Of a stretch of 64,000 nt of DNA, positions 8,501 through 38,812 are shown piece after piece (within the stretch, counting starts at the first letter, position 1; the number at the start of each line of letters is the position of its first letter). A model generated the notes under the pieces. The model worked only from the letters and a program-made list of their open reading frames with translations. It did not search any database and was not told where the DNA came from. The stretch is taken from contig CM000433.1 in the NCBI GenBank assembly GCA_000165345.1, positions 704,001 through 768,000 of the forward strand. The letters run 5' to 3'. A program made the translations under genes and the position numbers.

Positions 8501-11500
8501 TAAATATGACAGATCAGTCGTCTTATGAATATATAATCTCTTGTGATCTTTAATATACTCATGCAATTGAGATCTTCCAATAAATCCACACCTCAAAACT
8601 GCAATTTTATGGAAATCTTTAACTACATCCTCTGGTATACCTTTAACATTACTTAATAAAGTCCAGTCCAATAGCTCACCATAATTTGAAGATCTCTCTG
8701 GAATCATTTTATTCAAAAATCCATCTTCTAAAATTGTCACACCTCCTCCTAAAGTTGTTCCTGAAAATGGCAAATCACCCCTTTCTCCTCCTCCAGCTAA
8801 ACCTTGTAGGCTAAATCCTATATCGTCTAAGTTACCAATTCCAAGATCACCACCTCTACCATGTACCTTATCATTCATTGCTGTACCAAATATATTACTT
8901 TGATTACTCAAAAGAGAACCTTGTCCTCCAATAATTCCTCCATTAATTGAATTTGAAATAATATTATCAAAGTTAGTACTTTTATGTATATGAAAAACAT
9001 TAATATTTGGACCCAATCCAAGCTCACTAAGTCTTTCCAAAGGATTTCCTGATCCCATCAATAACATATTATTACTAATTAAACCCAAGAAATGCATTGA
9101 TACAAGTAAACCCGAAAAATTCAAACATCTTTCTGTCAAAGTTTGTAATGCCAAATCTGATAATTCTACAGGTAAAAATCCACTTCCATTACTCAATTTA
9201 GTGAATACACTCTTTACATGTTGAAGATTCCTTTCCTCTATATAGTTAAGATTAGTTAAACTGACAGAATTATCATAAGTTACACTTGGAAGACGATCAG
9301 TTGATAAATTGATTCCACAGAGTCGAATTAAGAATATAAAAGCGTCCATCCAAAGGTATTTGGAAACAATTACTTGAATTACTTGCTCCAAAGTTGTTTC
9401 AGAAAACTCAATAGTATTATTACTCGATGATGAATTTGTAACTCCACCTGCTCCTCCATCACCTTCTCCATTCCCTGTAGCTCCTCCACCAATCAAAATA
9501 CCATTAATTTCACTCATTTTTGAATCAACTAATGCTGAATGAAATACTTCAACACTAGTTTTTACCTCTCTTTGATGAATTATATTTGCATTATTCTTCT
9601 GGTTCTTACCTACTGAAGATATATTCTGATTACTATTAGAAAAATCTGATACTAAAACTCCTCCAGATCTAGAACTTGTAATAGAATTAGCTCTCCTCAA
9701 GACTGTTTGGATTGCTCCTAAAATAACTTTCATTCCTTGATGATTTCTTGGTAAAATAAGTACTTCTTCAGTAATTAAACTATGAGATCTTTTCCAAGGT
9801 ATATCTACAGTAAGCATATCAACATCGGTATCTTTTAATACACTTAAAGCATACAATGCTTTAGTTATCAAAGATACTTGAAATTGTAATGATGCATTTC
9901 CTTGAGATAATGATATAATTTCAAGTGTATCCTTAACATTACGTTGATTTTCGACTCTATACTCTTTTAAAGCATCAACAACTTGAGCTGCAGTTTTAGG
10001 AGGAGCTGATACAAAGTATTCATGTATAGAAAGTGAAAGCTCATTTAAAGATGGTCCATAGAAGATATTTACAATTCTTGCAGCTTTTCTTCTGATTAAT
10101 TTTGGATAAACAATATCCAAAAAGTGATCAGCTCCTTTTTTAACTCTGCTTTTATCAAATAATCTTCCAATTATATGGTTAAATAAGATCCAGATATCTT
10201 GTCTAATCTCATTGTGAAGAATTCTCATAAGCTGTAAGAACTTGGTTGTATCATTGTCAGAGTTTTTGTTTTGAGATGTCATACTCTTAATGCATGCACT
10301 ATCTCCTCCAATTCCATTATCTTTTAACCCATTTCCATTAATATTAGTTGTTGTACCTCCAATTCCTCCTCCTCCTCCTCCTGCAGGATTAGCTATCATA
10401 CTACTACTGCTTGCAGCATTTATAAAACTTGAACTTGATCCATTATTCAAGTTTGAGTTAGATTGATTTAATAACCAGGTTGAAGATGAAGTTTTGAAGT
10501 TTCTATTTGATGATCCTGTTCTTCCAATAATATTCAAATTATTTCCCTGTTTCTCAAACATACTTAAGCTTCCAGAGAATGAATATTCATCATGAAAAGT
10601 ACTATTTGAAATGATATTTCCATCATTAATAATATCTAAATCATCGTTACTTAAAGAATGAGAATTACCAAAAGTTAATACATTTCTTCTTCCAAATATA
10701 GGAATCAATAAAGCAACCTGAGCATCAAATACCTTATAAGCCAAAGAATGAATATCTCTCAAAGCTGTATCAATATCTGGAGTCCTTAAATTTCTGGTAG
10801 CAAATGTAAATATATATTTTAGCTTTTGTACATTCATCTCACGTAATAATTGAAACTTTGTATGCTTACTAGAGTTACCAACTCCTCCTCTAATATTATT
10901 ACTAATATTATTAGAACTCTTTCCTCTAATTGAAAAACCTCCAAAAGAATCCCCAACTCCTTCAAAAGTACTAGAAGATGATCTTCCATAATGATTTAAT
11001 GAACATAGCTTTAAATTATTTAAATCCCCAGTAATTACACCAATATCTGAATCATTCACAACTTTTCCAAAATGGAAATGATTACCTGTATTCTTTTTAC
11101 TATTTTCAAAACTTGAAGAAAGTAAATCTATCCATAAATAGCCTTTCTGATCTATCATAGGCTTAAATCCTGTTTTTATTGTATGGCAAGAACTAGCATT
11201 GAAAATATCCTCACTAAACTCATCATCATACTCTTCCTCATCTATTCCACCATTTTCTTGTGCTCCTTTATCATCAATAACTCCTCTATCTATTATAAAT
11301 TGATCATGAGCTTGGCTCATAATCATCTCACCTTCATTCTCACTTGTACCTCCTCTAATTGGAATAACCTTCTCATAATCAGAATCCAAATTCCCAGGAT
11401 ACAATGAATACAATATTATAATATCTTCCACAGAAAATCCTTGTTGATCATCTACATTTGTATTACAAATAGAATTAAAATAATCAATAATATCTTGGTA

Positions 11501-14500
11501 TTTGGTATTTAATCCATTAAATAAAAATCTATCATAGTGTAAGTTAATTACCCAGTATAGAAACTCTTCCCTATTCAAAAATCCATCCTCATCCATATCA
11601 AAGAAGTCAAATATGAGCTTTACTTTAGCTTCATCTGATAAAGATTCACTTGGAGGAAAGATTGGAACTTTGACTATAGCACATTTGTACCAAGTTTCAA
11701 GCTGCAAAAAATCTTCAACTTTATATCCAAACCTTGGACCATACTTAACACCATCTTGTAAAAGAGCTACATCAAATCCTTCCAATAAGCCATCAACCTT
11801 ATCATTTTCAGAAATAACATCCTTAACTGTAGCTAATTTCATTCCATAATACATTCTTAAAGTCTCTTGAACTCCAATAATCTCTCCTTTTGAATTAATC
11901 CCAAATAAGCTTTTAGGTGCAACTGGCAATATCTTCAAATATTCCCATTTGGAACAATATAATGAACAATAATCAGATATTGGAAGCTTTGACCCATAAG
12001 ATTTAATTCTTGTACTATGCTTTAACTCCATTGAACCATCCAAAAAGTCTTTGAGAGCTTGTTTATTATTAGAATTCACACCTAATGATCCCTCTATTCC
12101 ACTTTTATCCCTTGAGATTTGTTGTTTTCCTACATTATTTAATATTGCTTTTGCCCATAAGTATTTGTGATTACTAATCTCACAATGTAATTGTTCAGAA
12201 ACTGCAGCTCTAAGATCATTTGGATCAGCAGAATTTGAATTACTAGTAAATGTTTGATTTGTTGCCTCAAACCAATGTCCTAATGCAATTGAAATCAAAG
12301 ACTGGAGATTTTCAGCAATAAATCTATCAACAATTCCTCTTGAAGAACTAAAGTTATTCCATAAGCTTACTATAACAAATCCCAAAGCCAAAAGCATTAC
12401 CACATAAGGAAGTATATTGTCTGAATTAATTAAAGAACCCAATAAGAACCATAAAAGGAACATTGAAATTGCTAATAATGTTAGAAACATTGAAAATAAT
12501 GTTACAAACATTCCAATTTCTTCAAAAAGTACCAACAATTTTATCCAGTAATACCTCAAATTCCTCCTCCATCTCCAAATTAAACCTTTACCTGTTATTT
12601 CTGAATCTTCATTATTCTCCTCTTGTCTTTTATTATAAGATGAAGGTGATGAACTGGAAGCAATGAATGTAGTATGAATAATTATAAGATGTAAAACTGA
12701 TAATATCAATAAGTATGGAATAGGAAATGGTAAAGACATAAAAAAGTCCCAAGTTGGATTATATACAATATCTGAAAAATAATTTGAACTGATATGAGAA
12801 TGTGGATTTGAAATGGAAAGAGTTGATAAGTAATTATAAACCAGAGTTAGTATGATACAAGTTACTGGGAATATTGAAAGTATTGAAATTTGAAAACCAT
12901 AAATCATTATATTTAGTATTACTGGTAAAATTGAAAATTGAAAAGAATACCAAATTTCATGTATTAATTCTTGTCTTTGTTTTATTTTTGCTATATATAT
13001 TGGAACTAATATTCCTCCATAACCAATATTATATCCTGAAATCCTATCAAGTTTTTCATTATTTACCCCATTAATAATATCTGAATCAATTATTTCAGTT
13101 CCTGATTTCTGTCTTAAATTTCCTTCATCATCTAATTGAGTACTACCAAGGTGTTCAGTTTCCCCTACTTTATTCCAATTTGATATTGTTGTTAATTCAG
13201 TATACTCACAATTACTATTTCTCATAGAATGGATTGATCCATCAATAACTTGGTTATTTGAAACACTATTCTTCAAATTTCGAATTAAATTAGTAGATGA
13301 ACGTTTTAATTGAGCAATTTTTAAAGACATTAAAGCTTTAGACCATCGTTGTTTTGATTTGGATATACTTTTTCTCTCTCTATCCTTGAGTTTTTGTTGT
13401 TTGCTGCTTTCTTTTGTTGTATATATTAGACTTAAAATAGCTTTCCAACTTCTGAACTTGCTTGATCTCCAAGTAGATTTTCTTCTGAAAACTGTTGAAT
13501 AATTTGAATGAACTAATAAACCCGAAGAAATATTAATAGTTTTCGCATCTTCATTTTTTTGGATTGAATTATAATCTTCTTTATTAAAGCAAAATAAGCA
13601 TTTCAAATTTGAGGAAAAGCTACATATTGAATTAACCATTTTTGAAATGGATATACTTCTTAAAAATAGCATTATAGAATCAATTTTGAAGTAACTGACA
13701 ACCTTAATTGTTAAAGGTAAGAATATACTAGTATCCAATATAATTCCATTCTTGAGCAAAAATCTATCAGGAGAAGACGACCACCAATAAGTTGAGTAAT
13801 TTAAAGTACAATTTTCAATAATGTCGATTGATTTTCTTTGAGATTTTAAAAATATACAATTATCCAATTCTTTATCTTCACCTCTTAATATATATCTACT
13901 TCCTGTAGTTATAGCCAATGCTTTAGCACTAATCATAAACTGGCCAGGACAGTAAGTTCCTCTTTGATGAGTTTCTGTAGGAATTGGTTTTCTTATATTT
14001 TCACAAACTCTTAAACTGCTAGGTGAAACCAGGAATCCATACTTATTTAAATCATTATAAGTAACAACTTCCATTTCAAGTCCAAATGTTCTGCAAAATG
14101 TTGCGTACAATAACTCAAATTCACTCAAAGTTGTTAATCTTATGACTTTGAATGAATTAGAAACTGCTACTATTATTTGTTTATTGCCTAATGAAGATCT
14201 TCTTCCTGCTCCTGTACCTGTACCTGTTCCTGACCCTGCAAGGAAATATCCAGAATTATCATGAGTAACTGATCCCTTTGGAACAAAGATTTTTCCTTGA
14301 ATAGTTACATTGGATGGAATATCATCTTTACTTACTGCCATAACTAAATAAACATCCCTTGAAGATGATCTTTGTGAAATAAATGGTACATCGACTGACC
14401 ATGCAAAAGTACCTGTATTTGGAATTGATTTGTCTCCATGCAAAGAAGTTAAATGTGTATCTGTATAATGATCAAAAATATGTAAATGCAACTTTTTAGG

Positions 14501-17500
14501 AATGTAGCTTGAACTATCCTTCTTTAACTCCCTCCAAATCCATGTTAATTGAGTATCACTGCCATTAATAATAATCTTACCAGGGATATCATTAGTGAAT
14601 CTTGGTTTGTTTGAGTTCAAGGCTGAGTTTGAAGAATTTGGAGTCTCTTTGTTCTTTTCCAAGTTGACAGGATCATTGTTTAACGCAGCTCCTCCTGTCT
14701 TTTGTCTATTAATGATTGAATTAGCTGAATGATTATATATCAAACGACCACTATTTTCATCACTTTTTTTTTTCACCATTTCAATATCAATACTTTCTAT
14801 ATTATTTAAAGGATTTGAGTCAATAATAATTTCCTCAGAAAGGTCATGCCTTAAATATTGAACCCAAAATGATCTATCTAAAAGCATTGAAAGCTCTCCC
14901 CATTGTCCTCCCTCTACATAATATAGTTTTACTGAAATATCCACAAACTTGTTAATAGAGACAGTATCGTTTGAAATTGTATCATGAACTTGAATGATAT
15001 CATTTTCTTGAAGTTCTGAATGATAACCCATTTTTGAATGAATTCTTCTGCCATGTACAACATCATCACTATCATCGTGCATGGCTACCAAATCCCCCTC
15101 AAAACTATCCTCATTATTGCTGTCATTAACTAACGATTTCCAAGCTATTTCTATCAATTTGGAGCATTTCACATCTCCATTTGCCACGACTTGGCCACTA
15201 TCTGCCTCTTGTAACTCAAACAATATTCGCTTTTGAGATATTAAACTTTGCTCCAAATATAAGCTGCTTGTTACTGCACATGAATTATTAACTTTCTCAT
15301 CCCTTCCAAATCCCCCAATACTCAATCTACGGCTTTCCCCCTTAGAATTGTGATTTATCTTATTACGAAGAATATAAACATTATTTCCTCCTCCTAATTC
15401 TCTCCCATTCACTGTATTCACATTTTCATTATAGTTACCAAATAAGTTAATATTTTCCAAACAGCCCTCAATTCGAACCTTATCTGTATCGAATGACTTA
15501 TTCTTAAATGTATAACTCTTAAGTGAGGAAAAATCATCCTCTTCTTCTGTAATGCTGGATGCATGCAAACTGCCAAACCTTGCCGCCGAACGTCCCTCCC
15601 CAGCTCCACCTTTACTTGTATAATTCTCAGAAATCTTCCCTGCTCCTCCGCTCACTCCACTTGAAATCTCGCTTGTGACAAACTCATCCGGAAAATCTCT
15701 CACTAATCTTGCTATCAACACATACTTTTTATTCCCTCTCACCTCTGAATACCCACATTCAATACCGGAACTATAGTTTGGCGCGCGCGCCTCTCTGTTA
15801 ATGCTTTGGTTAGAGAAGGACCTTTCGAATCTTTGTTCACCATTTATGTCAGTGACTATTCCATCCATTTTGTGAGCTGAGTTGGTCATTTCTTCCCTTC
15901 CAAATACTCCCATATTGTTGCTTTCGTCATTTATTAAATTATTTTTATCGTCATCATCATTATCCTCGAACCCATAATCAAAAATGTTTTCTTGAGAAAT
16001 GCTATTACGTTTCTTCCTCTTCCCACCAAGAACATCAAAAATTATTATCTCAATATCTCTAAAATAGAACGGAATTCCGAAAGGAGAGTAGTGATCTGTG
16101 TTTTTGTTTATGAATAAATTAAGTGAGGATCTTTTCTTAGGCAAAAACCTCCTTAAGAAAAGTAGTGGGAAATCTACAAACTTCATCTTGTTTCCTGGAA
16201 TAATCTCATTACTCCAATTGCTCTGCTCAATAATATGGCCAGAAGATGATATTCTTAGAATTCTTAATCTATACTTTTGATCAGAAATTAGTTCATATGG
16301 CATTGTCACCTCAAAGATGCATTTATCATTATATTTCATTGGAACAAACAACTCTTGTTGATTTCTTCCCAAATGTGTAGTTAATGACGCCTCGTTTGCT
16401 GGAATATAAAGGAAGAATTCAGAAAGCCCTGACTCATTTGTTACTTTCTCTTCATAACTATTGCTATTATTCCCACTATATTGAGATAAGTTCTCTACCT
16501 GTTTAATATATATACAAAGCTTCTCATTATCACGCCTTTTTTGTCTCTGATTCCATCTCAATAATAATCCAAAGCTTGGCCATTGAATTGTAGAAACCAT
16601 TACAATCCATTCTGCAGCCTCTGATGTCCTAAAATCATGATTTAGACGGTGTGAAGCCGTACTTACTAGTTGCATTTCTCTAATACCTGTTAAAAACCAT
16701 GGGAAAACATAGTAATATAGTACCCACATTGCTGCTGCTGCTACCAAAATACCACATAATATATTCAAAGATAGAGAAACTATGTAACCTTGTAAGTCAT
16801 TTGCTGTTACAAGGTCTTTTAATATTGCATCATTTTCAGCTGTAAATATGTATTGTTCGATTGTCTGATATGGATTATCGGATAAGACTTGTGGATTAGA
16901 TTCAAAATCATCATCTGCTAACATAGAACTTTTTAGAATCTTCTTGGATAGTTTGCTCCAGCCTGGAATTAACCATCCTGGGAATATTATACCCTCTAAA
17001 AATGATATCATTGAGGAAAACAATTTAAATACTTTCTTTAGTTGACTTTTTAATTTCTTCATTACCCATTTTGTCGTTAAAAACAAGTTATCAAATATGC
17101 CAACCTTATTTCTTTCTCCTAATCCCAACCCTGAATTATAAGCCTTAATTTCTTCACCATCATTCTGAGTCCATACAATTACGCTTGGTTGTTGAGCTAT
17201 GCCTACGATTGCTGTATTTATTACACTAAAGATGTTTTCAGTTATTGAAGATTCACAAGCTTTAATTCTACTTGATTTCCCCATATAATTGCCTACATCA
17301 CTTATACTTTTGATATTTGCAATATCTTCATGAATATTTGAGTCCTGGTTAATGTAATAATCTTCACTTATATTTTCATCAATGTAAATTGACTCATGTA
17401 AGTTATTTGAAAGTAATCTTGGTCCATTCTTAATTCCAAATATCTTCTTCAAATCGCTTAATTTACTTTCTTGCTTATTTTTCTCACCATTAGAGGATTT

Positions 17501-19891
17501 TGAATCATCTGGACCAATCATCTTTGATATTCTGCTTGTCATATTTGCCAGTATTCCTCCTTTCCCTTGACCTTCTACTTTATCATCAGAATTTTTATGA
17601 ATTATATTATCAGCTATTCCAATATCCTTACTGATACTTTGATTAGTTATATTTGCATAAATTCCACTAATTCCTCCATTAATATTACCTGTATTAGAAG
17701 GATTATCATCAACATTGATTACATCTAGATCTTCCAAATCTGAATGACTCACTGGAACCATACACCTTAATCCAAGAATATGAATAAATAGAGTGTATAT
17801 CCTTGGCATTAAAAGTCCTCCTGATAATAAAACCAAAGCATATGGATCTCGAATAAAAGCTCTTGAAGATACTGCCTTCCAAGTTCCCCTAGGATATTCT
17901 CTATTTCCTAAAACATTAATATAAAGTACCCATGGACTTGCAAGATCCTCTTGAAGCCATTTTGAAAACCCATTAAATCTTGATTTTGAAAACGCAAGTA
18001 AATGTGGATCTTTCCATTGGTGTCTTCCTGCCCAAGTAATAAGTTCATCCGATATGTTATTAAAATCTGAACTTGATTCAAAGTTTGAATAAGCATTTAT
18101 ATATACTGGTGGAATACTTCCTTGAATGTTAATTCTTGTATTAATTGAAGAACCTGAAAGTTTATTATCCAAGAATGATGAATCTGGATTCAGAGTTGCA
18201 ACAACTGATGCAGTTTTATAATACCCATGACCATCTAAATCATTTGATTTGCTTTCAAGCTTGACTTTAACATGCTCAGCTCTAAAAACTGCTAATTCTG
18301 CAATTCTGACTGGCATAGTAACAACAATTGGTGTTCTACTATTAATATATATTGGAGCTCCTCTACTTTCTATAAACACATTCCTACGACCTGAATCTTG
18401 GAGATTTGGGAGATCTATAGAAGCCCAACCATCTGAAATTGTGAGTGAAATATTTGGTGAATATACATCTTTTAAATCAAAAGTCCCATGTAATGCTTCC
18501 AAGTGAAATAGTGATTTAGCCTTGATCGGAATCGATGACGAAACTCTCATATATGTTGAAGATGGCACAAACTTGACAGAAAGTTCGTCAAACTGGAAGT
18601 TATTTGCCAAGAAAAAGTTTATTGAACATTGAAAATAATCACCAGTATTAGTTTGGTGTAATTTTATTGATAAATTTGAATCATTATTAAAATTCCAAGG
18701 TCTAGGACTTGAATCACAGTATTCTTTATAATCCTTCCAAGAAATATTCTTTATATTATAATCACTATAAGTATCCCATGGAAGAATATATCTTTTCAAT
18801 ATCCAGAAGAAAGTTCCGTGAGAGCATATATATTCGAACTTATCTTTCTTCCTAGATGGTATACTGTACCTTCCAGAACTACCATAGTACATATGTGATT
18901 TGGAAAATAATCTCCAAGATCTAACTTTAATATAGCTCAGATCACTAGTTGAATTAAGGAATTGAATATGGCAATGTTTAACATCCAAAGTTACATTTAG
19001 TGGTCTATTTATTGAATTTTCAAAAATATCAGAGTCTTGTTTAATATTGAATAAAGGAAAAAGCTTCTTTAATAAGTTACTTTTACCTATTAATCCCATA
19101 TCATTGTTACCAGTTCTTGATACCACTGTTGGATTCTTTGATCTCAGTAATGAAGGAACTAATCCTTCAGTTTGTTCATTCTTTGACTCAAAAATACTTC
19201 CCAAAGGGTATAATGGAATAATATCATTAACAATATACTCATCTAGAAATATTGAAAAAGTATAAACCATTGAAATTAAAAAGAATATCCAAAGAAATAA
19301 AATTGGACGTACATTCAATTTTTGTAATGTGATTACTGGAATTCCAAAAGATACCGGAAATTCCCTTATTACTAAAAATTCGGAGCTTGGTAAACTTAGT
19401 ATTTCTCTCTTTTGAATACGTCTCGATTTTCCTCTGCTCTTTAATAACATCAATAATTCACGACTATTATCTTCATATATTTCGTCTTCAGAATCCAATT
19501 CTTCAGATTCTGTTTCGTCCTCACATTCTTCAAGGCCATCATCTAACTCATCATCAGAATTCTCTTCTGCTTCATTATAATCTCTTTCTTTCAGATCCCC
19601 TCCTTTTTGGTCAGCAGATAATCCATATTTATTAAATACCCTGCTTTCATAATTCTCACTATTCATTAACTTTCCATTTATCAGCTCCCTTTCCACATCT
19701 AAATAGTCACTATTAATAATTTGGTGAAATTTTGTGATAATACAATCATCATATTCTTCTTGCTCTAGAACATGATACTTTTCTGGTCTTACTGTTGCAC
19801 TTTCTATATATTCATCTGGGTACTTTTCATATTGTTCTAAAGCTCTTTCAGAATGAGGTCTTTGACAAATTCTAGAATCATAATCCACCAT
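5549..19891 (-). CDS. Giant 4780-aa multi-pass membrane protein with EF-hand motifs (function unknown, possibly channel-like)
   Basis: Single ATG-initiated ORF on the minus strand. An acidic N-terminus is followed by a TM helix (ILFLWIFFLISMVYTFSIFL). Dense TM cluster around nt ~12400-13030 (RISGYNIGYGGILVPIY...LLALGFVIVSLWNNF). Canonical EF-hand loop FDFFDMDEDGFLNREEF at nt ~11575-11625. Second EF-hand DLMDLNQDKSLDLQELLDGF plus C-terminal TM helices at nt ~6600-6830. Long Asn/Ser/Gly-rich low-complexity tracts. Confidence 0.85.
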   Translation of the reverse strand: MVDYDSRICQRPHSERALEQYEKYPDEYIESATVRPEKYHVLEQEEYDDCIITKFHQIINSDYLDVERELINGKLMNSENYESRVFNKYGLSADQKGGDLKERDYNEAEENSDDELDDGLEECEDETESEELDSEDEIYEDNSRELLMLLKSRGKSRRIQKREILSLPSSEFLVIREFPVSFGIPVITLQKLNVRPILFLWIFFLISMVYTFSIFLDEYIVNDIIPLYPLGSIFESKNEQTEGLVPSLLRSKNPTVVSRTGNNDMGLIGKSNLLKKLFPLFNIKQDSDIFENSINRPLNVTLDVKHCHIQFLNSTSDLSYIKVRSWRLFSKSHMYYGSSGRYSIPSRKKDKFEYICSHGTFFWILKRYILPWDTYSDYNIKNISWKDYKEYCDSSPRPWNFNNDSNLSIKLHQTNTGDYFQCSINFFLANNFQFDELSVKFVPSSTYMRVSSSIPIKAKSLFHLEALHGTFDLKDVYSPNISLTISDGWASIDLPNLQDSGRRNVFIESRGAPIYINSRTPIVVTMPVRIAELAVFRAEHVKVKLESKSNDLDGHGYYKTASVVATLNPDSSFLDNKLSGSSINTRINIQGSIPPVYINAYSNFESSSDFNNISDELITWAGRHQWKDPHLLAFSKSRFNGFSKWLQEDLASPWVLYINVLGNREYPRGTWKAVSSRAFIRDPYALVLLSGGLLMPRIYTLFIHILGLRCMVPVSHSDLEDLDVINVDDNPSNTGNINGGISGIYANITNQSISKDIGIADNIIHKNSDDKVEGQGKGGILANMTSRISKMIGPDDSKSSNGEKNKQESKLSDLKKIFGIKNGPRLLSNNLHESIYIDENISEDYYINQDSNIHEDIANIKSISDVGNYMGKSSRIKACESSITENIFSVINTAIVGIAQQPSVIVWTQNDGEEIKAYNSGLGLGERNKVGIFDNLFLTTKWVMKKLKSQLKKVFKLFSSMISFLEGIIFPGWLIPGWSKLSKKILKSSMLADDDFESNPQVLSDNPYQTIEQYIFTAENDAILKDLVTANDLQGYIVSLSLNILCGILVAAAAMWVLYYYVFPWFLTGIREMQLVSTASHRLNHDFRTSEAAEWIVMVSTIQWPSFGLLLRWNQRQKRRDNEKLCIYIKQVENLSQYSGNNSNSYEEKVTNESGLSEFFLYIPANEASLTTHLGRNQQELFVPMKYNDKCIFEVTMPYELISDQKYRLRILRISSSGHIIEQSNWSNEIIPGNKMKFVDFPLLFLRRFLPKKRSSLNLFINKNTDHYSPFGIPFYFRDIEIIIFDVLGGKRKKRNSISQENIFDYGFEDNDDDDKNNLINDESNNMGVFGREEMTNSAHKMDGIVTDINGEQRFERSFSNQSINREARAPNYSSGIECGYSEVRGNKKYVLIARLVRDFPDEFVTSEISSGVSGGAGKISENYTSKGGAGEGRSAARFGSLHASSITEEEDDFSSLKSYTFKNKSFDTDKVRIEGCLENINLFGNYNENVNTVNGRELGGGNNVYILRNKINHNSKGESRRLSIGGFGRDEKVNNSCAVTSSLYLEQSLISQKRILFELQEADSGQVVANGDVKCSKLIEIAWKSLVNDSNNEDSFEGDLVAMHDDSDDVVHGRRIHSKMGYHSELQENDIIQVHDTISNDTVSINKFVDISVKLYYVEGGQWGELSMLLDRSFWVQYLRHDLSEEIIIDSNPLNNIESIDIEMVKKKSDENSGRLIYNHSANSIINRQKTGGAALNNDPVNLEKNKETPNSSNSALNSNKPRFTNDIPGKIIINGSDTQLTWIWRELKKDSSSYIPKKLHLHIFDHYTDTHLTSLHGDKSIPNTGTFAWSVDVPFISQRSSSRDVYLVMAVSKDDIPSNVTIQGKIFVPKGSVTHDNSGYFLAGSGTGTGTGAGRRSSLGNKQIIVAVSNSFKVIRLTTLSEFELLYATFCRTFGLEMEVVTYNDLNKYGFLVSPSSLRVCENIRKPIPTETHQRGTYCPGQFMISAKALAITTGSRYILRGEDKELDNCIFLKSQRKSIDIIENCTLNYSTYWWSSSPDRFLLKNGIILDTSIFLPLTIKVVSYFKIDSIMLFLRSISISKMVNSICSFSSNLKCLFCFNKEDYNSIQKNEDAKTINISSGLLVHSNYSTVFRRKSTWRSSKFRSWKAILSLIYTTKESSKQQKLKDRERKSISKSKQRWSKALMSLKIAQLKRSSTNLIRNLKNSVSNNQVIDGSIHSMRNSNCEYTELTTISNWNKVGETEHLGSTQLDDEGNLRQKSGTEIIDSDIINGVNNEKLDRISGYNIGYGGILVPIYIAKIKQRQELIHEIWYSFQFSILPVILNIMIYGFQISILSIFPVTCIILTLVYNYLSTLSISNPHSHISSNYFSDIVYNPTWDFFMSLPFPIPYLLILSVLHLIIIHTTFIASSSSPSSYNKRQEENNEDSEITGKGLIWRWRRNLRYYWIKLLVLFEEIGMFVTLFSMFLTLLAISMFLLWFLLGSLINSDNILPYVVMLLALGFVIVSLWNNFSSSRGIVDRFIAENLQSLISIALGHWFEATNQTFTSNSNSADPNDLRAAVSEQLHCEISNHKYLWAKAILNNVGKQQISRDKSGIEGSLGVNSNNKQALKDFLDGSMELKHSTRIKSYGSKLPISDYCSLYCSKWEYLKILPVAPKSLFGINSKGEIIGVQETLRMYYGMKLATVKDVISENDKVDGLLEGFDVALLQDGVKYGPRFGYKVEDFLQLETWYKCAIVKVPIFPPSESLSDEAKVKLIFDFFDMDEDGFLNREEFLYWVINLHYDRFLFNGLNTKYQDIIDYFNSICNTNVDDQQGFSVEDIIILYSLYPGNLDSDYEKVIPIRGGTSENEGEMIMSQAHDQFIIDRGVIDDKGAQENGGIDEEEYDDEFSEDIFNASSCHTIKTGFKPMIDQKGYLWIDLLSSSFENSKKNTGNHFHFGKVVNDSDIGVITGDLNNLKLCSLNHYGRSSSSTFEGVGDSFGGFSIRGKSSNNISNNIRGGVGNSSKHTKFQLLREMNVQKLKYIFTFATRNLRTPDIDTALRDIHSLAYKVFDAQVALLIPIFGRRNVLTFGNSHSLSNDDLDIINDGNIISNSTFHDEYSFSGSLSMFEKQGNNLNIIGRTGSSNRNFKTSSSTWLLNQSNSNLNNGSSSSFINAASSSSMIANPAGGGGGGIGGTTTNINGNGLKDNGIGGDSACIKSMTSQNKNSDNDTTKFLQLMRILHNEIRQDIWILFNHIIGRLFDKSRVKKGADHFLDIVYPKLIRRKAARIVNIFYGPSLNELSLSIHEYFVSAPPKTAAQVVDALKEYRVENQRNVKDTLEIISLSQGNASLQFQVSLITKALYALSVLKDTDVDMLTVDIPWKRSHSLITEEVLILPRNHQGMKVILGAIQTVLRRANSITSSRSGGVLVSDFSNSNQNISSVGKNQKNNANIIHQREVKTSVEVFHSALVDSKMSEINGILIGGGATGNGEGDGGAGGVTNSSSSNNTIEFSETTLEQVIQVIVSKYLWMDAFIFLIRLCGINLSTDRLPSVTYDNSVSLTNLNYIEERNLQHVKSVFTKLSNGSGFLPVELSDLALQTLTERCLNFSGLLVSMHFLGLISNNMLLMGSGNPLERLSELGLGPNINVFHIHKSTNFDNIISNSINGGIIGGQGSLLSNQSNIFGTAMNDKVHGRGGDLGIGNLDDIGFSLQGLAGGGERGDLPFSGTTLGGGVTILEDGFLNKMIPERSSNYGELLDWTLLSNVKGIPEDVVKDFHKIAVLRCGFIGRSQLHEYIKDHKRLYIHKTTDLSYLESVNKSSGGQKGSNKGEIEQGKLLLFSRSQSNNFNQLNNNNIQDTNEDEGVTSNNKKMINKNQDDYFEKMTGSSNKMVDFNISFDIFDTTLTTLGFSSHKLQSYILWLLLCLNLNMGTVRPFVNASLARDFIIMVYLQPIYKNNGEEEYLSGRRMSNVGCNNPNNSTNNNVNKGSNSNENSVNNTTYGGTGLFRGVGMTISGSNLISGTFKSSLYEVTNQNKQHFDAQDVHSYRGYFTHEMLRRFLALAKITIPNSGVESIWKSLPKDPLNITSFIVPYRDYGKNMEREAEEDEQMNSRGVLEDGMNKYLRARGNRKGEEHYMYEDEDYERDEYNSEQQLMNRGGGLIGIHNKGFEHYEAFGEGIAEKDKIGGESKYKLKPGYQIEGELGSSSKKKFSKRMSIGGRFRRDKKIGNNLMNQFEDSMENMESYIRKSKIRNNLKESVHLRILMDPTGMDPMEGVVINIDSVRRLLPKKLMTGLWPEAIKVVLNIGLHLEKPESSIIEATSKCLEYSNRYGLIRPGDMVSILAALSKEGLSFDLLCELLNNMRIQLPVREVKRMFDLMDLNQDKSLDLQELLDGFEVLFGLFLPQLVHDHVGLSYERQGLIIMATSASLLLFCIFVGIAIKTFEGMRNELSTAVQSVLAIVGAVGLQTGASQDSKEIEERMKERIEDIMGGDIETSMSQIELGEDSQYSSNSENILVLREKKSSSRIISKNKNYNKGGGTGGTPNGLIIITEKGPILKIGYSLPSKFRSDVNDPRPCITFYSQDQVNLEPIFYCSKGIINQQHNIFIEDDVSKRWCIKPALPKYTGLTFSTETGIISGTIPAHTQNKIGYIRRVSSTLENDERHSSLIRNSIINMNEGANQTMNNSNSSDINTGMNKSQKKLLNNIKNLSNESDNNLGSLGKAGGGTGIEIDMIAKELLKNNNNREDLVMPYGGQLVQMNRKTFTIYCIISELDEKVVFKTRVTFQIVPRTRTQKS

Positions 19892-21105: not shown

Positions 21106-24100
21106 TCAACAGAATAGACCAATTGAATCAACAAAACTGTCAATATTTTGGCTAAATAATTTATCTCCAACAGTCTCGCAAGGAAAATCTTGAACAAGAT
21201 TTGAAGGAGCTAGTATATAAGCTGAAAATGGAGACATATTGAGAAAAACTGTTTGCTTGAGAGATTTTGTATTGACAAATCTATATGGAGATTCGTGTTG
21301 GAAATTGTTTGGAAATTTATTATTAACAATAGAATTAATATTTGAAGGCTCTGAGTTAGGGCTAAAAATCTTGAATCCTTGCTCAGATTTGATAGAAGTG
21401 GAACAAAAGCTGCCCGTGATATGATATTTTTTGTCTCCTCCAAATCTCTCATCTTGTGTGTCAATTATTAGACTCTGGGGAAGTTCACTTGAAATCCCAA
21501 ATCCATAATCGTTGTAATACTTTTCGCTGAAATTGAAAACAAAAACACAATTATTTCTCTCAATTACCATAACTTTATCCAATTCGTGGCACAATACTAC
21601 ATTAATATTAGATGATGAATTATACAAACTATCAGTTGTTAAGATCTTTAATGAATCTTTTGAATGCTTACCAAGGCTTTTTGCTCTAGAATAGATGTTT
21701 TGAATAGACTTTGAGCCTTCTTTTCCATTGCTTTGGGGGGTTGAGTCCAAATAAATGACAGATTCATTATCTACTGGGCTTGTATTATCCCCTGAGCTCT
21801 CTTCCAATTTTTTAATAATTGCTTCTTTCTTCGCTAAAACCCTCTTAGAAAATGTTGAAGCTGGGGAAATCTCTGAAGGTATTAATGAAGTAGAGGTTCC
21901 TTTAGTTAAAGGTGAAATTGATTTGGAGTAACAAGCTGAAGTAAGCCCATTCTTACCTAACTCTCCCTCACTACCACATGTTAACGGTGAAAGATAATTA
22001 TAATTGACTCCATAATCCTGAATGTTATTCTTGGCTATCCAGCTTAAAAATTTCTCAAGACGAATCAATAGAGTATTAAAGAATTCTAAATGCTTGAATT
22101 TCAAGTTCTTGTTATCTGCCAAATCCCATTTACAACACATTTTGCTATTATCCATGTTATTATTTGGTCTAGGAAGATCAAAAGAATCAGGATTTCCAAA
22201 TTCGGAGCCCATACTTTGAAAGACACCATTTTTTGCGAAAGCCATGGTTGTTAATATAAGTAGCTTTAACTGTTTAAGAGCAAAAACCGACTTGTCAAAA
22301 CCGTCAAATACCATCATATGATGATGAAGAGCATTTTCTCCAAAGGCTTGAAGAATGATGGGTGAATTTGGCTTAAGTATTAAGCTTGGAGTAACATCCA
22401 AAACATTGCACTGTTCAAAATACAAGAAACTAGTTGCTCGTGCAATTGAGTCCCATGAAAATGAATAAGCTGCTTTTACTCTACCTCTGGACCCCATCCA
22501 TCTAGAATGATCAAAGTTTTTCAATATCTCACAGCAACCCCAAGCAATGCTATCCTTACATGGCTCAACCAAGTACCCATCTACGTTCGGAGTTAAGAAA
22601 TCCCTTGGGCCGCCACTAGTAGTAGCAACAACAGGCTTTCCAGCTGTCCATCCTTCCAATACAACAATTCCAAATGGTTCATTTCTTGATGGTACTACTA
22701 CTGCGTCACAAGCCTTGTAAAGTCTGATTACATCATCTCCTGATTTCTTTCCAACAAATCTGATGGAATTGTAAATACCTAACTGATGAGATCTACGCAC
22801 AATCTCATCTTTTTGGTGTCCATCTCCAACTATGATAAATTTCGTATCATTACGATATTTCAAAATGCCAGGTACTGCTTCAATAAGTAAGTCAACTCCT
22901 TTTTGGAGAGCCATTCTTGCAACGCAAAGAAATGTTGGTTCCAAAGGTCCTATGCCGTATTGCCTTTTAACTTCGCCAGCATCATCCATTGCTACACTAT
23001 CAAAGGTCTTGCAATTAATTCCATTAAAAATTACTTTAATTTTGTTTCTATTTATTCCAAATAGTCTACATACTTCCTCTGCAAACACTCCACTTACACA
23101 AATTAGTCGGTCTGCAGTATGGGAGCCTTCTCTCTCTATATCAGAAATTCTACCGCTCTGTCCTCCATATGACTGATTTCCACATCTGCCGTATTCAGTA
23201 GAATGCAATGTTAGGATAGTAGTCCTATTATTATTTCCAATTCTTCTTAAACTTGTTAATACAGGAGCAGCTAACCAATCATGGCAATGACAAATATTGA
23301 ATCGATACCCATTCTTTACATTATTAAGCATTGGATGATCAGGTACCTTTGTTAGCCCATCTTCCCATCTCTGCATATAATATACAAACGAATTACACAT
23401 ATTTATAATTTCAGTAACAAAATCAGAATTCAACTGGAAAGGGCATTCATGGTATAATACTCCATCGTGAACTTTGATTATATATGCTGATGTAGTTGCC
23501 CTTGTGAATAGATGAACCTCGTGGCCAAGTCTTACAAGGCTTGCAGACAACTGTGAAACATGAGGTGAAACCCCACCAACTGAGTGAGTATAAAGACTTT
23601 CCCAACTGAACATTGCAATTCTGAGAGGATTCTGTGTCACCGTCTTCATCTCCAGAGATTCTATCCCATATAAGTTTCTGGAAACAAACTCAACTGTATG
23701 CAAATCAGATTCTCCCATATCCGAGTAACTATTATTATTGCCATTATCATTATCTCCTCTACTGGATATGTTTTGCTTCTCTCTGTTTTTGTATAAAATC
23801 CGAATCTTCTTATTGGAATTCCTCATTTTATCCTCATGGGGAAGCAACTCGTCAATTATATCTTTTTTAATATTTAAACTGGATGGGCTTTTAAGGATGA
23901 TGTCTTGCAAGGAGCTACAAATTGAAGTATTCCAAATATAGTCAAAGCCCATACCTCCATATTCCAAAGGTACTGCAAGCTCTGAACAAGCCTTGTCTTT
24001 GTTTTCTCTTAAGAGAAGCTCATTTGCTATTGTAATAGCAAATGGCTTAATTGTGTGGATTGTATCATTAATCAAAGCCAACACTGAGGAGATATAGGAG

Positions 24101-27100
24101 TATTTTTCTTGTTCTTCTGATAGATCTGGAACAGTGAATCTGAAGCCATCAATACCAAGATGAGTCAATAAATAGTGGAGAGAAGAGAATATTTGAGCTA
24201 ACATTGGAATGTAACCCAGATTGAGGCGACTGTAACTTTTATTGTAAGCAAATAGAGGTGAAATTACATCTGGAGTATGTTTGAAAAAGCTTGGATTGAA
24301 TGTATTCAAATTAGTAAGCATAAATGACTCATACAGATCAACAACAGAGTCATCCAAAAATAACTCATCAATTCTAACTATATTAGTACCAGAATTACCA
24401 TTTCCAAATATAAATGATCCCTCTCTGCTCATATTTCCGTTGCTTGCTTCGCTTCCTGAGCACATATTTATCTCATCAATGTCTATAATGTCTTGTAGAT
24501 TGCTCAAATTGTTGTTAACCTCCCTATCACATGGCTGAAGCATTGAGTTAGAATTAGTAATATCTGCAAATGTTAAGTTAAAGTCGACTATCACGGCAAT
24601 TCCTCTTGAATGGCAGTCATCCATTAAGTCCTTAAACTCTTCCAAGGTACCGTATTTGCTATAAGGAGTGAAATAATTGAATGGATACTGACTGTTGCTA
24701 AATGACTGATAATGCTCTAGTAAACCAGTCAACAGTAAACAATTATATCCTCCTCGAGATATCCTTGGTAGAACCTTTTCTTTAAAGCTTGCAAAAGTTC
24801 CAAATTCTCCCTTGGAAGAAAATGCAATATTTGCTTCATATATATACAAAGGTGATTGCCTAAAATTTGTCACAAGTCCTTTGACAATACTTGTAACTGG
24901 TATCTGATATTCCTTTCCATTTGAATCAAAGATATTATCTTTATTTTGCTTTAAATTTCCACCTAACCTTGGCTTTAAAACACATCTTGGAAGAGGGTAC
25001 TTGAGATCTCTATTTCTCAGGCCATCGTGCTCTTTTTGGCTTTCCAAGTAAAAATTACAATTCATTAAAGCATTCTCAGTACTATCTTTGATTCCTGAAG
25101 TAGTCAAAGATCTTGAATAAGAAAGTAATCTGTAAGTCTCCAGTTCTTGAGAAGAAACTGCTCCCATACTATTGTTGACTTCTGCCATATGACCTTCTGT
25201 GAATCCATCAGCCTTAGAAGTAACAATCCTAATTTTGAATGAAATAGAATTAGCTTTGGGACTACAACTTAAAAAACTTTCTAGCTTATTTTCATCCAAA
25301 ATTATTGAATACACCCTACTCTTCATAAAATGTGGAATTGAAGGGTAATTTTCATATATCTCTTGGTTCATTGAACAAATATTTTCTGTTTCAAGTTGCA
25401 TTGGGTGAGAAGTCTTATTCCAATCATTAAAATCGCCAACTAAGTAAATATTCATGGTTCTTAAGCCTCCCTTAATACTTCTTCTTCTTCTATTAAGTCC
25501 ATAGCAAAATACCTGGTCTGTAAGTTCATCCCCTATAAACTCCCTAATTAACCAAGCCCTATTGCCATTTCCCAATTCTGACTTCCTTTTCAGCTCTACT
25601 ACGCCCATACTCTTGTAAACTTCACAAAATTTTGTGAACCCTTCCCTACACCAAATCCTCTCATTCTCCATAGTTTTCTCATCCTTATCGGTATTTGTTT
25701 GTGCATGCGCATGTAATAAAGCAAAGCATTGCATGCAATTCCTATCAGAACATGTGGCGCCGCCCCACACTGACTTTGCCAACTTGGCCTTGAGCGTGTG
25801 CGTGTCGAACATCATTTCTCTGCACTCATAAAACTCTTCTTCCTTGACAGATTCCTGAATGACAGGTATTTCTTGGTTGTCTGTCAACTTTTCATTCTGG
25901 TTATTGTTACTATTAATTGTTGAGTTCGAGTACAATAAATTTTTCTTTCTAATATTCGATATTGCAACAGAGTCAGAAGCGCCAACTACCGCAGACTCCC
26001 AAAATCTTAAATTTGACCATTCTGAAACCAAAAGAGGATCTTCTTCAAATCCAATCACTTCTTCATCCTCAAATATCTCGATATCATCGATCACTTCCAA
26101 TTCTTTATTCTCATCTAGTCCCTCAAGAGTTGAACCTTTCTTTGATAGAGTTAAGTTCTCCGTGCTTGAATTAATAGAGGTTGTTACTGAGTCCAGGTCC
26201 GTGGATGAAAACCCATTTGCTGAGTCAACCAATTTGCAAGAGTCTGTTGAATAGTAATTCAATGTTGTAGCTATCGTTGATTTGCCATCCAAGTTTTCCC
26301 CTCCCATCATATTTTCTTTAATCTCTAGGTCTCTCTCAGAGTCTTCTGTTCTGAAAATGTTTAAATCCTCAAAATTCTCTAGTGAATTATAAATCAACTT
26401 CTGTGTCATAAACTCTGTTCTAGCTTCTCCAAGAGCCAAATCTTTTAAGGTTGAAATGTAACTGCTCCAATTATATGTACTCGTTACCATTGCATAATCT
26501 GTTGGATTCGTAAATATGTGAATCATATAAGCATCTTTCTTAGAGTTTGATAATGATAATTTCTTCAATTCATCCTCAAATCTTGCTTGTCCATCCAATC
26601 TATTCTCAATGCTAAAACTAAAAACAGTTAGGAATGATTCTTCCATCTTATTCAACCGAAAATCTTCATATAAAGTCTCAACATTATTTATAAGCTCTGA
26701 AATATTGCTAACTTCACTAAATTTCACCATAAAAGCTAAAGAAGACAAATCAAAACTTCGAATCTTCTCATTACTTTCTTTCAAAAATGTATTGCAAAAT
26801 GCCAATCCCAGGTTATTTCGTGAATTCTCTATATCTCTTCTCCTCTTTAAGGTTGTCATCATCCACTTTTCATTGCTAATTTCGCTCTTATTTCCTCCAT
26901 TCATATTCAAAATCGAGTTTGAGTGAGAAAAGTAATTCTGTAAAATCTCTCTCTCATTCTTGTCCACAATTACTTCAAACATCTTATTTCTAAAAACACC
27001 ATCACTATAATTAAAAAATTCAAGCATACATAGATTTCTTGGATCCTTATTATCTTCCAAAACCATCCAATAACTCCCTTTTACCATTCTTGAAAATTCA

Positions 27101-27315
27101 TTCAGTTGAAATATCAGTCCTAGCTTTTCTTTATCGTTTTCACATCTTATTAGAGTCATACTTAGTGGATAAGAGTCCAGAATGCAACATTCCCCTTCTC
27201 TATTACTACTTATCTCCTCATTTTCGTGGCATGTTAGAATATCTAGAGCCTCCTCTAGTTCCAGTCGCATTCTGTTTACATTTTTATCCAACTCAAGCTC
27301 CTCCCTATCACTCAT
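21106..27315 (-). CDS. 2069-aa alpha-glucan metabolism protein: GH13 branching-enzyme-like domain interrupted by a GT4-type glycosyltransferase domain
   Basis: ATG ORF (MSDREELELD...). GH13/branching-enzyme N-part at aa ~590-1140 (nt ~23898-25548): LVGDFNDWN, IYEANIAFSS...VLPRISRGGYNCLLLTGLLEH, GIAVIVDFNLTF, GIDGFRFTVPD, GGMGFDYIWN. GT4 domain at aa ~1230-1635 (nt ~22413-23628): RIAMFSWESLYTHSVGGVSPHVSQLSASLVRLGHEVHLFTR ... VVVPSRNEPFGIVVLEGWTAGKPVVATTSGGPRDF. Branching-enzyme C-part at aa ~1650-2040 (nt ~21198-22368): HHHMMVFDGFDKS..., FQSMGSEFGNPDSFDLPR..., KVMVIERNNCVFVFNFSEKYYNDYGFG...FGGDKKYH. Confidence 0.85.
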   Translation of the reverse strand: MSDREELELDKNVNRMRLELEEALDILTCHENEEISSNREGECCILDSYPLSMTLIRCENDKEKLGLIFQLNEFSRMVKGSYWMVLEDNKDPRNLCMLEFFNYSDGVFRNKMFEVIVDKNEREILQNYFSHSNSILNMNGGNKSEISNEKWMMTTLKRRRDIENSRNNLGLAFCNTFLKESNEKIRSFDLSSLAFMVKFSEVSNISELINNVETLYEDFRLNKMEESFLTVFSFSIENRLDGQARFEDELKKLSLSNSKKDAYMIHIFTNPTDYAMVTSTYNWSSYISTLKDLALGEARTEFMTQKLIYNSLENFEDLNIFRTEDSERDLEIKENMMGGENLDGKSTIATTLNYYSTDSCKLVDSANGFSSTDLDSVTTSINSSTENLTLSKKGSTLEGLDENKELEVIDDIEIFEDEEVIGFEEDPLLVSEWSNLRFWESAVVGASDSVAISNIRKKNLLYSNSTINSNNNQNEKLTDNQEIPVIQESVKEEEFYECREMMFDTHTLKAKLAKSVWGGATCSDRNCMQCFALLHAHAQTNTDKDEKTMENERIWCREGFTKFCEVYKSMGVVELKRKSELGNGNRAWLIREFIGDELTDQVFCYGLNRRRRSIKGGLRTMNIYLVGDFNDWNKTSHPMQLETENICSMNQEIYENYPSIPHFMKSRVYSIILDENKLESFLSCSPKANSISFKIRIVTSKADGFTEGHMAEVNNSMGAVSSQELETYRLLSYSRSLTTSGIKDSTENALMNCNFYLESQKEHDGLRNRDLKYPLPRCVLKPRLGGNLKQNKDNIFDSNGKEYQIPVTSIVKGLVTNFRQSPLYIYEANIAFSSKGEFGTFASFKEKVLPRISRGGYNCLLLTGLLEHYQSFSNSQYPFNYFTPYSKYGTLEEFKDLMDDCHSRGIAVIVDFNLTFADITNSNSMLQPCDREVNNNLSNLQDIIDIDEINMCSGSEASNGNMSREGSFIFGNGNSGTNIVRIDELFLDDSVVDLYESFMLTNLNTFNPSFFKHTPDVISPLFAYNKSYSRLNLGYIPMLAQIFSSLHYLLTHLGIDGFRFTVPDLSEEQEKYSYISSVLALINDTIHTIKPFAITIANELLLRENKDKACSELAVPLEYGGMGFDYIWNTSICSSLQDIILKSPSSLNIKKDIIDELLPHEDKMRNSNKKIRILYKNREKQNISSRGDNDNGNNNSYSDMGESDLHTVEFVSRNLYGIESLEMKTVTQNPLRIAMFSWESLYTHSVGGVSPHVSQLSASLVRLGHEVHLFTRATTSAYIIKVHDGVLYHECPFQLNSDFVTEIINMCNSFVYYMQRWEDGLTKVPDHPMLNNVKNGYRFNICHCHDWLAAPVLTSLRRIGNNNRTTILTLHSTEYGRCGNQSYGGQSGRISDIEREGSHTADRLICVSGVFAEEVCRLFGINRNKIKVIFNGINCKTFDSVAMDDAGEVKRQYGIGPLEPTFLCVARMALQKGVDLLIEAVPGILKYRNDTKFIIVGDGHQKDEIVRRSHQLGIYNSIRFVGKKSGDDVIRLYKACDAVVVPSRNEPFGIVVLEGWTAGKPVVATTSGGPRDFLTPNVDGYLVEPCKDSIAWGCCEILKNFDHSRWMGSRGRVKAAYSFSWDSIARATSFLYFEQCNVLDVTPSLILKPNSPIILQAFGENALHHHMMVFDGFDKSVFALKQLKLLILTTMAFAKNGVFQSMGSEFGNPDSFDLPRPNNNMDNSKMCCKWDLADNKNLKFKHLEFFNTLLIRLEKFLSWIAKNNIQDYGVNYNYLSPLTCGSEGELGKNGLTSACYSKSISPLTKGTSTSLIPSEISPASTFSKRVLAKKEAIIKKLEESSGDNTSPVDNESVIYLDSTPQSNGKEGSKSIQNIYSRAKSLGKHSKDSLKILTTDSLYNSSSNINVVLCHELDKVMVIERNNCVFVFNFSEKYYNDYGFGISSELPQSLIIDTQDERFGGDKKYHITGSFCSTSIKSEQGFKIFSPNSEPSNINSIVNNKFPNNFQHESPYRFVNTKSLKQTVFLNMSPFSAYILAPSNLVQDFPCETVGDKLFSQNIDSFVDSIGLFC

Positions 27316-38310: not shown

Positions 38311-38812
38311 AATGCATTATAAATAAATACTAAGATAATAAGTTAAAGATTAATAAATTAACATTATGAACAAATGTAGTGAGGTACCAAAAAAATATAA
38401 ATTTTTTCAAATTATAATTTCTTATGGTTGAGTATTAAAGTGTTTTTAACATTGGATTTATAGGATTTAACAATTATTAATTTTTTTAATTTCTTAATAC
38501 GAAATTTAAACAATTATAATAATTATATTTCAAGTTTAATCTCTTTTTGAAGACTAAATTTCAATTAGTAAATATAATAGACTTAATTTTGAATAATAGT
38601 ACTAAGCCAAGTTTATAATCTGATTTGAACTTCGAAATTAATGTATTTTAAATCATAAAAATTTCAAGGTTTAGTTCAACAAATATATAAATATATATAT
38701 ATTTATTTATATGTTAAATATATAAATTTATTAATTCAATTAAGAAAATCCAGGAATCCGATAAAATTTGAGGACAAAAAAAAAGAGATAAGTGAATATT
38801 ATTGGAACTAAC

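Follow-up and report, generated by a model that had tools for sequence, protein, structure and literature searches.

How do the signatures of a branching enzyme come to lie on both sides of a glycosyltransferase (GT) in a single polypeptide, and what might such a protein do? The question is raised by a 2069-residue open reading frame (ORF) on the reverse strand of a 64,000-nucleotide stretch of Cryptosporidium parvum DNA (assembly GCA_000165345.1, contig CM000433.1, positions 704,001 to 768,000; hereafter the window), an AT-rich region (~30% GC) with very long intron-free ORFs. The product is identical to EAK88018.1 of C. parvum Iowa II, which carries the label “LPS glycosyltransferase of possible cyanobacterial origin”, and a near-identical protein had been deposited earlier under the name “putative glycan synthetase”. 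An earlier note on this DNA, made from its letters alone, proposed that a GT4 domain is nested inside a degenerate barrel of glycoside hydrolase family 13 (GH13) rather than appended to it, and that the barrel may be catalytically dead. Our literature search found no description of the nested architecture or of catalytic-residue loss, and no functional study.

Alignments and models place the glycosyltransferase within a branching-enzyme barrel

A Pfam search of the whole protein gives, on its GH13 side, only a sub-threshold Alpha-amylase fragment (residues 880–912). When the GT is cut out and solved structures are searched, branching-enzyme matches appear on both sides of it, as the earlier note had claimed, and these are colinear with the C. 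glabrata enzyme GBE (7p43): residues 621–679 align with 85–145 of that structure (CBM48), 817–918 with 190–292, ~1077–1127 with 397–441 (a weak match in the GGxGFDY region), ~1680–1756 with 528–604 (the MGNEFGHPEW...PR block) and ~1901–1972 with 610–682 (the C-domain). The whole-sequence E-value against 7p43 is 1.1e-29, reaching 1.2e-35 with a profile of the genus. A further profile, made from seven orthologues after deletion of the GT and of the variable loops (the excised profile), matches canonical branching enzymes of ~680–720 residues (CBM48, Alpha-amylase, Alpha-amylase_C) at E~1e-166 with 97–100% coverage. Because this profile spans canonical enzymes at such a score, the flanks can be taken as two parts of one ordinary branching enzyme, and their match to this family is far beyond chance. 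The short motifs quoted in the earlier note are all present, both upstream of the GT (VGDFNDW at residue 626, LPRI at 849, DFNLTF at 911, GFRF at 1057, GGMGFDY at 1120) and within or downstream of it (EPFGIVVLEGW at 1546, MVFDG at 1668, MGSEFGNPD at 1702, VFVFNF at 1924, RFGG at 1957).

Alignment of 25 nested orthologues with six canonical branching enzymes gives the proposed nesting a definite host loop. The GT enters between “ESHDQA[LI]” (region IV, at the end of β7) and “VGDKT” of the canonical sequences, that is, within the β7–α7 loop, which carries the third catalytic residue in branching enzymes. Two other placements of region IV, at KKIRILYKN (before the GT) and at NVLDVTPS (after it), were excluded, as the alignment puts this region at IESLEM (residues 1218–1223). 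The segment HH..MVFDG, which had been offered as a downstream signature, is indeed part of the branching enzyme, but it belongs ~18 residues after region IV, and region IV itself lies upstream of the GT.

An AlphaFold2 model of residues 800–1995 (pTM 0.66) reproduces the order β1–β7, GT, α7–β8–α8 and C-domain, with the low-complexity loops disordered; a solved branching enzyme overlays the modeled structure of a compact orthologue at 613 of 687 residues. Two of these loops lie in the first part of the barrel (residues 919–984 and 1166–1212), and a third (residues 1761–1899) is missing from the compact orthologues. Between distant Cryptosporidium species the barrel segments are 55–81% identical and the loops 9–35%; the scaffold, judged from these sequences, is still constrained.

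Taken from alignment and modeling, then, the architecture is that of a complete eukaryote-type (GH13_8-like) branching enzyme interrupted by a complete GT of the GT-B fold. The N- and C-termini of the GT-B fold lie close together, which suits it to insertion in a loop. The domain order (CBM48, barrel, C-terminal β-sandwich) is that of the eukaryote-type GH13 subfamily 8 branching enzymes (C. glabrata GBE 7p43, rice BEI 3amk, human GBE1 5clt), enzymes of a type to which the excised profile is 40–46% identical. In these enzymes the A-domain is broken solely by domain B, between β3 and α3. The chimera, in contrast, has an A-domain that is not contiguous, with a ~410-residue GT-B between β7 and α7, and the Cryptosporidium protein additionally has replaced catalytic residues, long low-complexity loops and a 560-residue N-terminal extension.

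Two other systems bear comparison. The B’ domain of amylosucrase (GH13_4) is a ~60-residue insertion in the same β7–α7 loop of an active enzyme; by analogy, this loop would appear to tolerate additions close to the active site, whereas the chimera places a 410-residue enzyme there in a barrel that is probably inactive. The fungal α-1,3-glucan synthase Ags1/Mok1 consists of a GH13-like module, a GT5 synthase and a multi-pass membrane domain in tandem, and so likewise combines a GH13 module and a GT-B glucan synthase in one polypeptide; it is tandem and membrane-bound, whereas the C. parvum protein is nested, has no predicted transmembrane segment and has an apparently dead branching enzyme as its GH13 part.

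Could two genes or exons have been misjoined, or the motifs have matched by chance? We found no evidence to support such an artefact. The frame runs open through 6.2 kb of genomic DNA, and the same colinear layout recurs in >25 proteins, drawn from the genomic and transcriptomic data of distant taxa, with E-values down to 1e-166, so that we attach practically no weight to this explanation.

The GH13 catalytic residues are replaced

The proposal that the barrel is dead had been based on readings by eye of region I (lacking its His) and region II (lacking the nucleophile Asp). Aligned to the six canonical branching enzymes, both readings stand, and regions III and IV are found to be replaced as well (Table 1), the last of these being the final barrel element ahead of the GT insertion. 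All four replacements are invariant across the genus Cryptosporidium, and a complete GH13 catalytic set occurs in none of the 25 nested orthologues. The replacing residues vary by lineage: Vitrella reads GFRFV and ESKE, whereas Toxoplasma reads GFRFE, IANE and EDAD (Glu for the nucleophile Asp, Asn for the acid/base Glu and Ala for the region IV His, with region I His and region IV Asp kept). In four dinoflagellate-like sequences the nucleophile Asp is retained, but the acid/base Glu is missing, as is the region IV His (and, in two of them, the region IV Asp). The alignment thus supports the view that the GH13 part is a catalytically dead pseudoenzyme.

This bears directly on whether the chimera might function as a branching enzyme that carries the GT as a mere add-on. 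The full branching-enzyme fold and CBM48 are retained, and naming leans the same way: UniProt gives the Toxoplasma nested orthologue (XP_002369745.1, P0022 in our set) as a branching enzyme, and TGME49_209960, whose equivalence to that protein is not confirmed, is listed as SBE2 without being studied (PMC9241709). Set against this, the catalytic residues are replaced in Cryptosporidium and, for the most part, in Toxoplasma, and a 400-residue domain occupies the loop that bears the third catalytic residue; we regard a branching function as very improbable. Given the loss of GH13 catalytic residues, the protein should not be classed as a branching enzyme, and on the same grounds we would not expect glucan branching from the protein cited as SBE2, its probable orthologue in Toxoplasma.

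Table 1. Features of the nested protein, with residue numbers in the 2069-residue product and nucleotide coordinates in the window
Feature	Residues	Coordinates	Strand	Basis or remark
Whole ORF	2069 residues + stop	21106..27315	(-)	Single uninterrupted 6.2-kb frame; identical to EAK88018.1
N-terminal extension	1–560	25636..27315	(-)	No recognizable domain; genus-specific
CBM48-like module (YLVGDFNDWNKTSH)	~600–720	25156..25518	(-)	Aligns with residues 85–145 of 7p43
GH13 (β/α)8 barrel part 1, β1 to β7	816–1227	23635..24870	(-)	Alignment and models
GH13 region I, DFNLTF	911–916	24568..24585	(-)	Canonical DVVHSH; His replaced by Leu
GH13 region II, GFRFT	1057–1061	24133..24147	(-)	Canonical GFRFD; nucleophile Asp replaced by Thr
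GH13 region III, IANEL	1096–1100	24016..24030	(-)	Canonical IAEDV; acid/base Glu replaced by Asn
GH13 region IV, IESLEM	1218–1223	23647..23664	(-)	Canonical AESHDQ; His-Asp replaced by Leu-Glu
Inserted GT-B glycosyltransferase	1228–1640 (~410 residues)	22396..23634	(-)	Pfam and models; complete, GT4-like
GT motif HCHDW	1343–1347	23275..23289	(-)	HxHDW pattern, invariant throughout the GT family
GT EX7E motif EPFGIVVLE	1546–1554	22654..22680	(-)	Inside the family-invariant PSRNEPFGI
GH13 barrel part 2, α7–β8–α8 (ENALHHHM..., MGSEFGNPDSFDLPR)	1641–1760	22036..22395	(-)	Alignment and model
Low-complexity loop	1761–1899	21619..22035	(-)	Poorly conserved, predicted disordered
Branching-enzyme C-terminal β-sandwich (Alpha-amylase_C-like) and tail (DKVMVIERNNCVFVFNF...DERFGG)	1900–2069	21109..21618	(-)	Alignment and model

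The inserted glycosyltransferase is GT4-like, with intact motifs

Pfam resolves the insert into Glyco_transf_4 (residues 1246–1435, 2.3e-20) and Glycos_transf_1 (residues 1449–1612, 2.5e-38). The starch-synthase N-domain Glyco_transf_5 also passes its threshold over residues 1232–1419 (55.8 against 22.7), with a score under that of Glyco_transf_4. No part of the protein is better conserved than this domain (89–92% identity across Cryptosporidium). The motifs HxHDW, THSTEYGRCGN, RxxxQKG and PSRNEPFGIxxLE are invariant in the family, as are E1546 and E1554 (of EX7E) and two basic residues of the C-terminal domain, R1467 and K1472; by its sequence, the GT is intact.

An N-terminal KxGGL motif is a feature of GT5 glycogen and starch synthases; the GT instead reads THSVGGVSPHV, without the Lys, and it stays under the cut-off of every curated NCBIfam model (among them 65 against 328 bits for TIGR02095 glgA, 131 against 302 bits for TIGR02149). 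Profile E-values against solved structures are 1e-45 for MshA, 5e-42 for SPS, 8e-42 for GlgM and 2.5e-36 for archaeal GlgA, and the GT model gives TM-scores of 0.84–0.87 to GlgM and BshA. By fold and profile the domain is GT4-like and not a curated GT5 glycogen synthase. The “GT4” of the earlier note is to this extent borne out, but needs qualifying in that the domain also passes Glyco_transf_5 and carries HxHDW, at which position the aligned GT4 enzymes read HSHYW, HTNYW, HSHTW or HVHYA. Identity to the solved GT4 and GT5 enzymes (SPS 6kih, GlgM 6tvp, BshA 6n1x, MshA 3c48 and the Pyrococcus abyssi glycogen synthase 2bis) is only 20–26%, so that a substrate cannot be assigned from them.

The nested architecture spans Myzozoa

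Orthologues 49–98% identical to the C. parvum protein are present in every Cryptosporidium species sampled by database search. The full 2069-residue query recovered these alone (a consequence of its low-complexity words), and wider homologues were found with shorter queries over conserved regions. The nested colinear layout occurs in Vitrella brassicaformis, Toxoplasma, the gregarines Selenidium, Digyalum and Porospora and the dinoflagellate Effrenium, and also in many marine transcriptome and metagenome proteins of ~1100–1200 residues, for which the precomputed Pfam domains run CBM_48, GT, Alpha-amylase_C. The earlier note hinted correctly at an apicomplexan protein, but on these sequences the architecture is not specific to Cryptosporidium and extends across Myzozoa (apicomplexans, chromerids and dinoflagellates).

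In a neighbor-joining tree of GT domains, which is indicative only, all nested sequences fall together with 87/100 bootstrap support, suggestive of a single insertion event. Stand-alone homologues from red algae and a glaucophyte adjoin this clade (a Porphyridium purpureum “putative glycosyltransferase” and proteins of Cyanidium, Madagascaria and Gloeochaete); their GT domains are 46–50% identical and have no branching-enzyme flanks. The sequences suggest a single origin of the chimera, no later than in an early myzozoan.

One environmental read-assembly protein (P0025, 1938 residues) carries an additional branching-enzyme module, joined to the nested unit on its upstream side. In this module all four GH13 motifs are intact (DLVHAH, GFRFDGITS, GEDVSG, CESHDQ), and from these it is apparently an active branching enzyme.

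Prokaryotic relatives of the glycosyltransferase often lie beside glucan genes

The 80 closest prokaryotic loci, which we screened with glycogen-gene proteins taken from first context look-ups, encode relatives 43–51% identical over residues 4–407 of the GT domain, in phyla that include Planctomycetota, Nitrospirota, Verrucomicrobiota, Acidobacteriota, Omnitrophota and Bdellovibrionota. The “cyanobacterial origin” of the database label is unsupported, in that no cyanobacterial sequence occurs among these 80 loci (no dedicated phylogenetic test was made). An α-glucan gene lies within 10 kb of the GT at 54 loci, within 1.5 kb at 44 and within 500 bp at 34, these being raw counts without a random-locus comparison; as a rough guess, a glycogen gene would turn up in only a few percent of 20-kb windows taken at random. 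The glucan neighbors are mostly on the strand of the GT. A GH57 branching enzyme is nearby in 38 of the 80, the others comprising further GH57 proteins, GlgX, GlgP, GlgB, MalQ and small CBM48 proteins. Operons include GT-GlgX-GlgB-MalQ-GlgP, CBM48-GT-CBM48-BE-GH57 (BE, branching enzyme) and GT-DUF4912-GH57 BE; the glycogen-accumulating Methylacidiphilum fumariolicum SolV has a GT-GH57-GH13 cluster, with a canonical glgA also present. At an Omnitrophica locus the context look-up showed no glucan genes.

The prokaryotic proteins share the motifs HxHDW, RxxxQKG and PSRNEPFGI with the chimera and are likewise paired with a protein of branching-enzyme type. They are stand-alone (~390–450 residues) and sit next to active branching enzymes, whereas in C. 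parvum the partner surrounds the GT in one polypeptide and is inactive by its sequence. In one ENA metagenome protein (P0269, 878 residues; precomputed Pfam only) a member of this prokaryotic family is fused to GH57. From the domain strings and motifs of P0269 and P0025, the GT family has been fused independently to glucan enzymes, to GH57 in the former and to a branching enzyme in the latter. Together these loci outline a widespread, uncharacterized prokaryotic GT4-like family that would be tied to glycogen metabolism. The literature offers an analogue, likened here by description and not by sequence, in the Mycobacterium tuberculosis α-1,4-glucosyltransferase Rv3032, which adjoins the putative branching gene Rv3031 (PMC2674218), and GT4 genes have been noted inside archaeal glycogen clusters, where their role “requires clarification” (PMC11046441).

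Several recurring partners were seen at these loci. Stand-alone CBM48/AMPK1_CBM proteins of 92–130 residues flank the GT at L005 (6744–7022 and 9227–9619), and such small proteins also lie beside it in further bacterial glycogen clusters, at L017, L026, L038, L049, L066, L080 and L086. A DUF4912 gene, a recurring unannotated partner, sits between the GT and the GH57 branching enzyme at L004 (9901–11067), and also at L035 and L070. In an Alkanophagales archaeon (L002, 6554–9212), a 494-residue NTP_transferase gene with DUF5752 overlaps the GT start, resembling a pair of sugar-nucleotide synthase and GT; a GH15 gene lies 6 kb upstream.

A candidate glucan-directed glucosyltransferase on a branching-enzyme scaffold

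Oocysts of Cryptosporidium and Eimeria and bradyzoites of Toxoplasma store their energy as amylopectin, which affects infectivity and reactivation; schemes of the apicomplexan pathway commonly show one starch synthase (SS) and two branching enzymes. With moderate confidence, we read the chimera as a glucan-directed α-glucosyltransferase mounted on a branching-enzyme scaffold that is itself non-catalytic, and take it to assist or prime the synthesis of amylopectin. The notion of a glucan-binding scaffold for a synthase, already raised in the earlier note, is plausible, motivated as it is by the constrained scaffold and by the glycogen-gene context of the GT relatives.

In this mechanism the dead branching enzyme would no longer cut or transfer chains; its CBM48, barrel groove and C-domain would instead bind α-1,4/1,6-glucan and hold the GT on the polymer. 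As the β7–α7 loop is at the catalytic face of the barrel, the GT would be positioned over the former active-site groove. The GT, taken to be an active retaining enzyme, would then add α-linked glucose to a glucan chain or nascent primer, probably from UDP-glucose. This nucleotide sugar is the donor of apicomplexan and red-algal starch synthesis, and amylopectin synthesis in Toxoplasma is UDP-glucose based. The 2069-residue protein has neither a signal peptide-like segment nor a hydrophobic stretch that would suffice for a transmembrane helix (Kyte–Doolittle average at most 1.43 in any 19-residue window); it is predicted to be soluble, consistent with cytosolic amylopectin.

The strongest constraint on the role comes from Toxoplasma, in which deletion of the GT5 starch synthase removes all amylopectin detectable by periodic acid–Schiff stain, even in the over-accumulating Δcdpk2 background. 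The chimera orthologue is consequently not a redundant bulk synthase there, and an accessory role fits it best; its contribution would be to priming, initiation or specialized elongation and not to bulk synthesis. The glycogenin-like Gat1 of Toxoplasma is dispensable for amylopectin.

In Cryptosporidium the balance could differ, and the chimera could be the main or only amylopectin-elongating synthase, if the genus lacks a GT5 starch synthase or has little need of one. The degree of GT conservation across the genus, its passing of the Pfam starch-synthase N-domain threshold, the relatives in glycogen operons and the grouping of “Cryptosporidium SS” apart from other apicomplexan SS (PMC8205521) would all sit well with this. 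We nonetheless consider it quite unlikely, in that Toxoplasma needs its GT5 enzyme for all detectable amylopectin though the chimera orthologue is present, and M. fumariolicum has this type of GT alongside a canonical glgA.

Several points weigh against the preferred reading. GT4-like enzymes are functionally very diverse and the nearest solved structures have different substrates; we found no biochemically characterized member of this GT family; a glucan gene is lacking near 26 of the 80 prokaryotic relatives, among them the four most similar (Bdellovibrionota); and in an Eimeria proteome a “glycan synthetase”, linked to the chimera by name only, is enriched in the oocyst-wall fraction, which could mean another product. 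The GT might in that case make something other than α-1,4-glucan (a glycolipid, a small glycoside or compatible solute, or an oocyst-wall glycan), with the dead branching enzyme as a structural or targeting module. The existing “LPS glycosyltransferase” annotation, the presence of MshA, BshA, SPS and PimB among the closest solved folds, and, given the many glycosides of red algae, the stand-alone homologues in that group lend themselves to the same view. However, the GT is fused to three constrained glucan-binding or glucan-handling modules, links or fusions of its family to glucan enzymes of GH57 and GH13 have arisen repeatedly and independently, and the protein shows neither a signal peptide-like nor a transmembrane segment; on balance, a non-glucan product seems unlikely to us.

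The preferred reading, of a glucosyltransferase held on glucan by a dead branching enzyme, also admits a bolder version, in which alveolates, having no glycogenin that works for this purpose, would start their cytosolic (floridean-type) starch with the chimera as the initiator so far missing from the pathway, the GT making or extending the first malto-oligosaccharide and the branching enzyme gripping the chain. We offer this as a speculation with low odds. If true, the protein would be a self-contained priming machine that passes its product to the GT5 starch synthase and a true branching enzyme, which would explain why deletion of the starch synthase alone leads to loss of all visible amylopectin.

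For the apicomplexan pathway the accessory or priming role would have practical consequences. By its sequence the “second branching enzyme” cannot branch, and it carries a highly conserved, unstudied GT, so the gene list for amylopectin synthesis would be revised and with it the choice of knock-outs and targets. The chimera would be a candidate for the priming step, and an enzyme specific to parasites and algae, to which animals have no equivalent. As a case of protein evolution, it would represent a whole enzyme inserted into the active-site loop of another, the host of which then became a pseudoenzyme.

The N-terminal extension and neighboring genes

The N-terminal extension is moderately conserved (34–46% identity between distant Cryptosporidium species) and holds many invariant residues despite having no detectable domain. 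A Cys-rich stretch (C522, C527, C530, C556, C564) lies directly before the CBM48.

Directly downstream of the chimera gene, on the same strand, is a 4780-residue uninterrupted ORF (5549–19891, reverse strand), whose sole Pfam match is one EF-hand pair at residues ~2755–2814. On the forward strand, a 690-residue AMP-binding enzyme (38792–40864) is acyl-CoA-synthetase-like (Pfam 1.7e-57) and is followed by a 1258-residue ORF (41520–45296) with no Pfam match. A 2093-residue ORF on the reverse strand (56832–63113) has several PHD and zf-HC5HC2H zinc fingers and is probably a chromatin reader.

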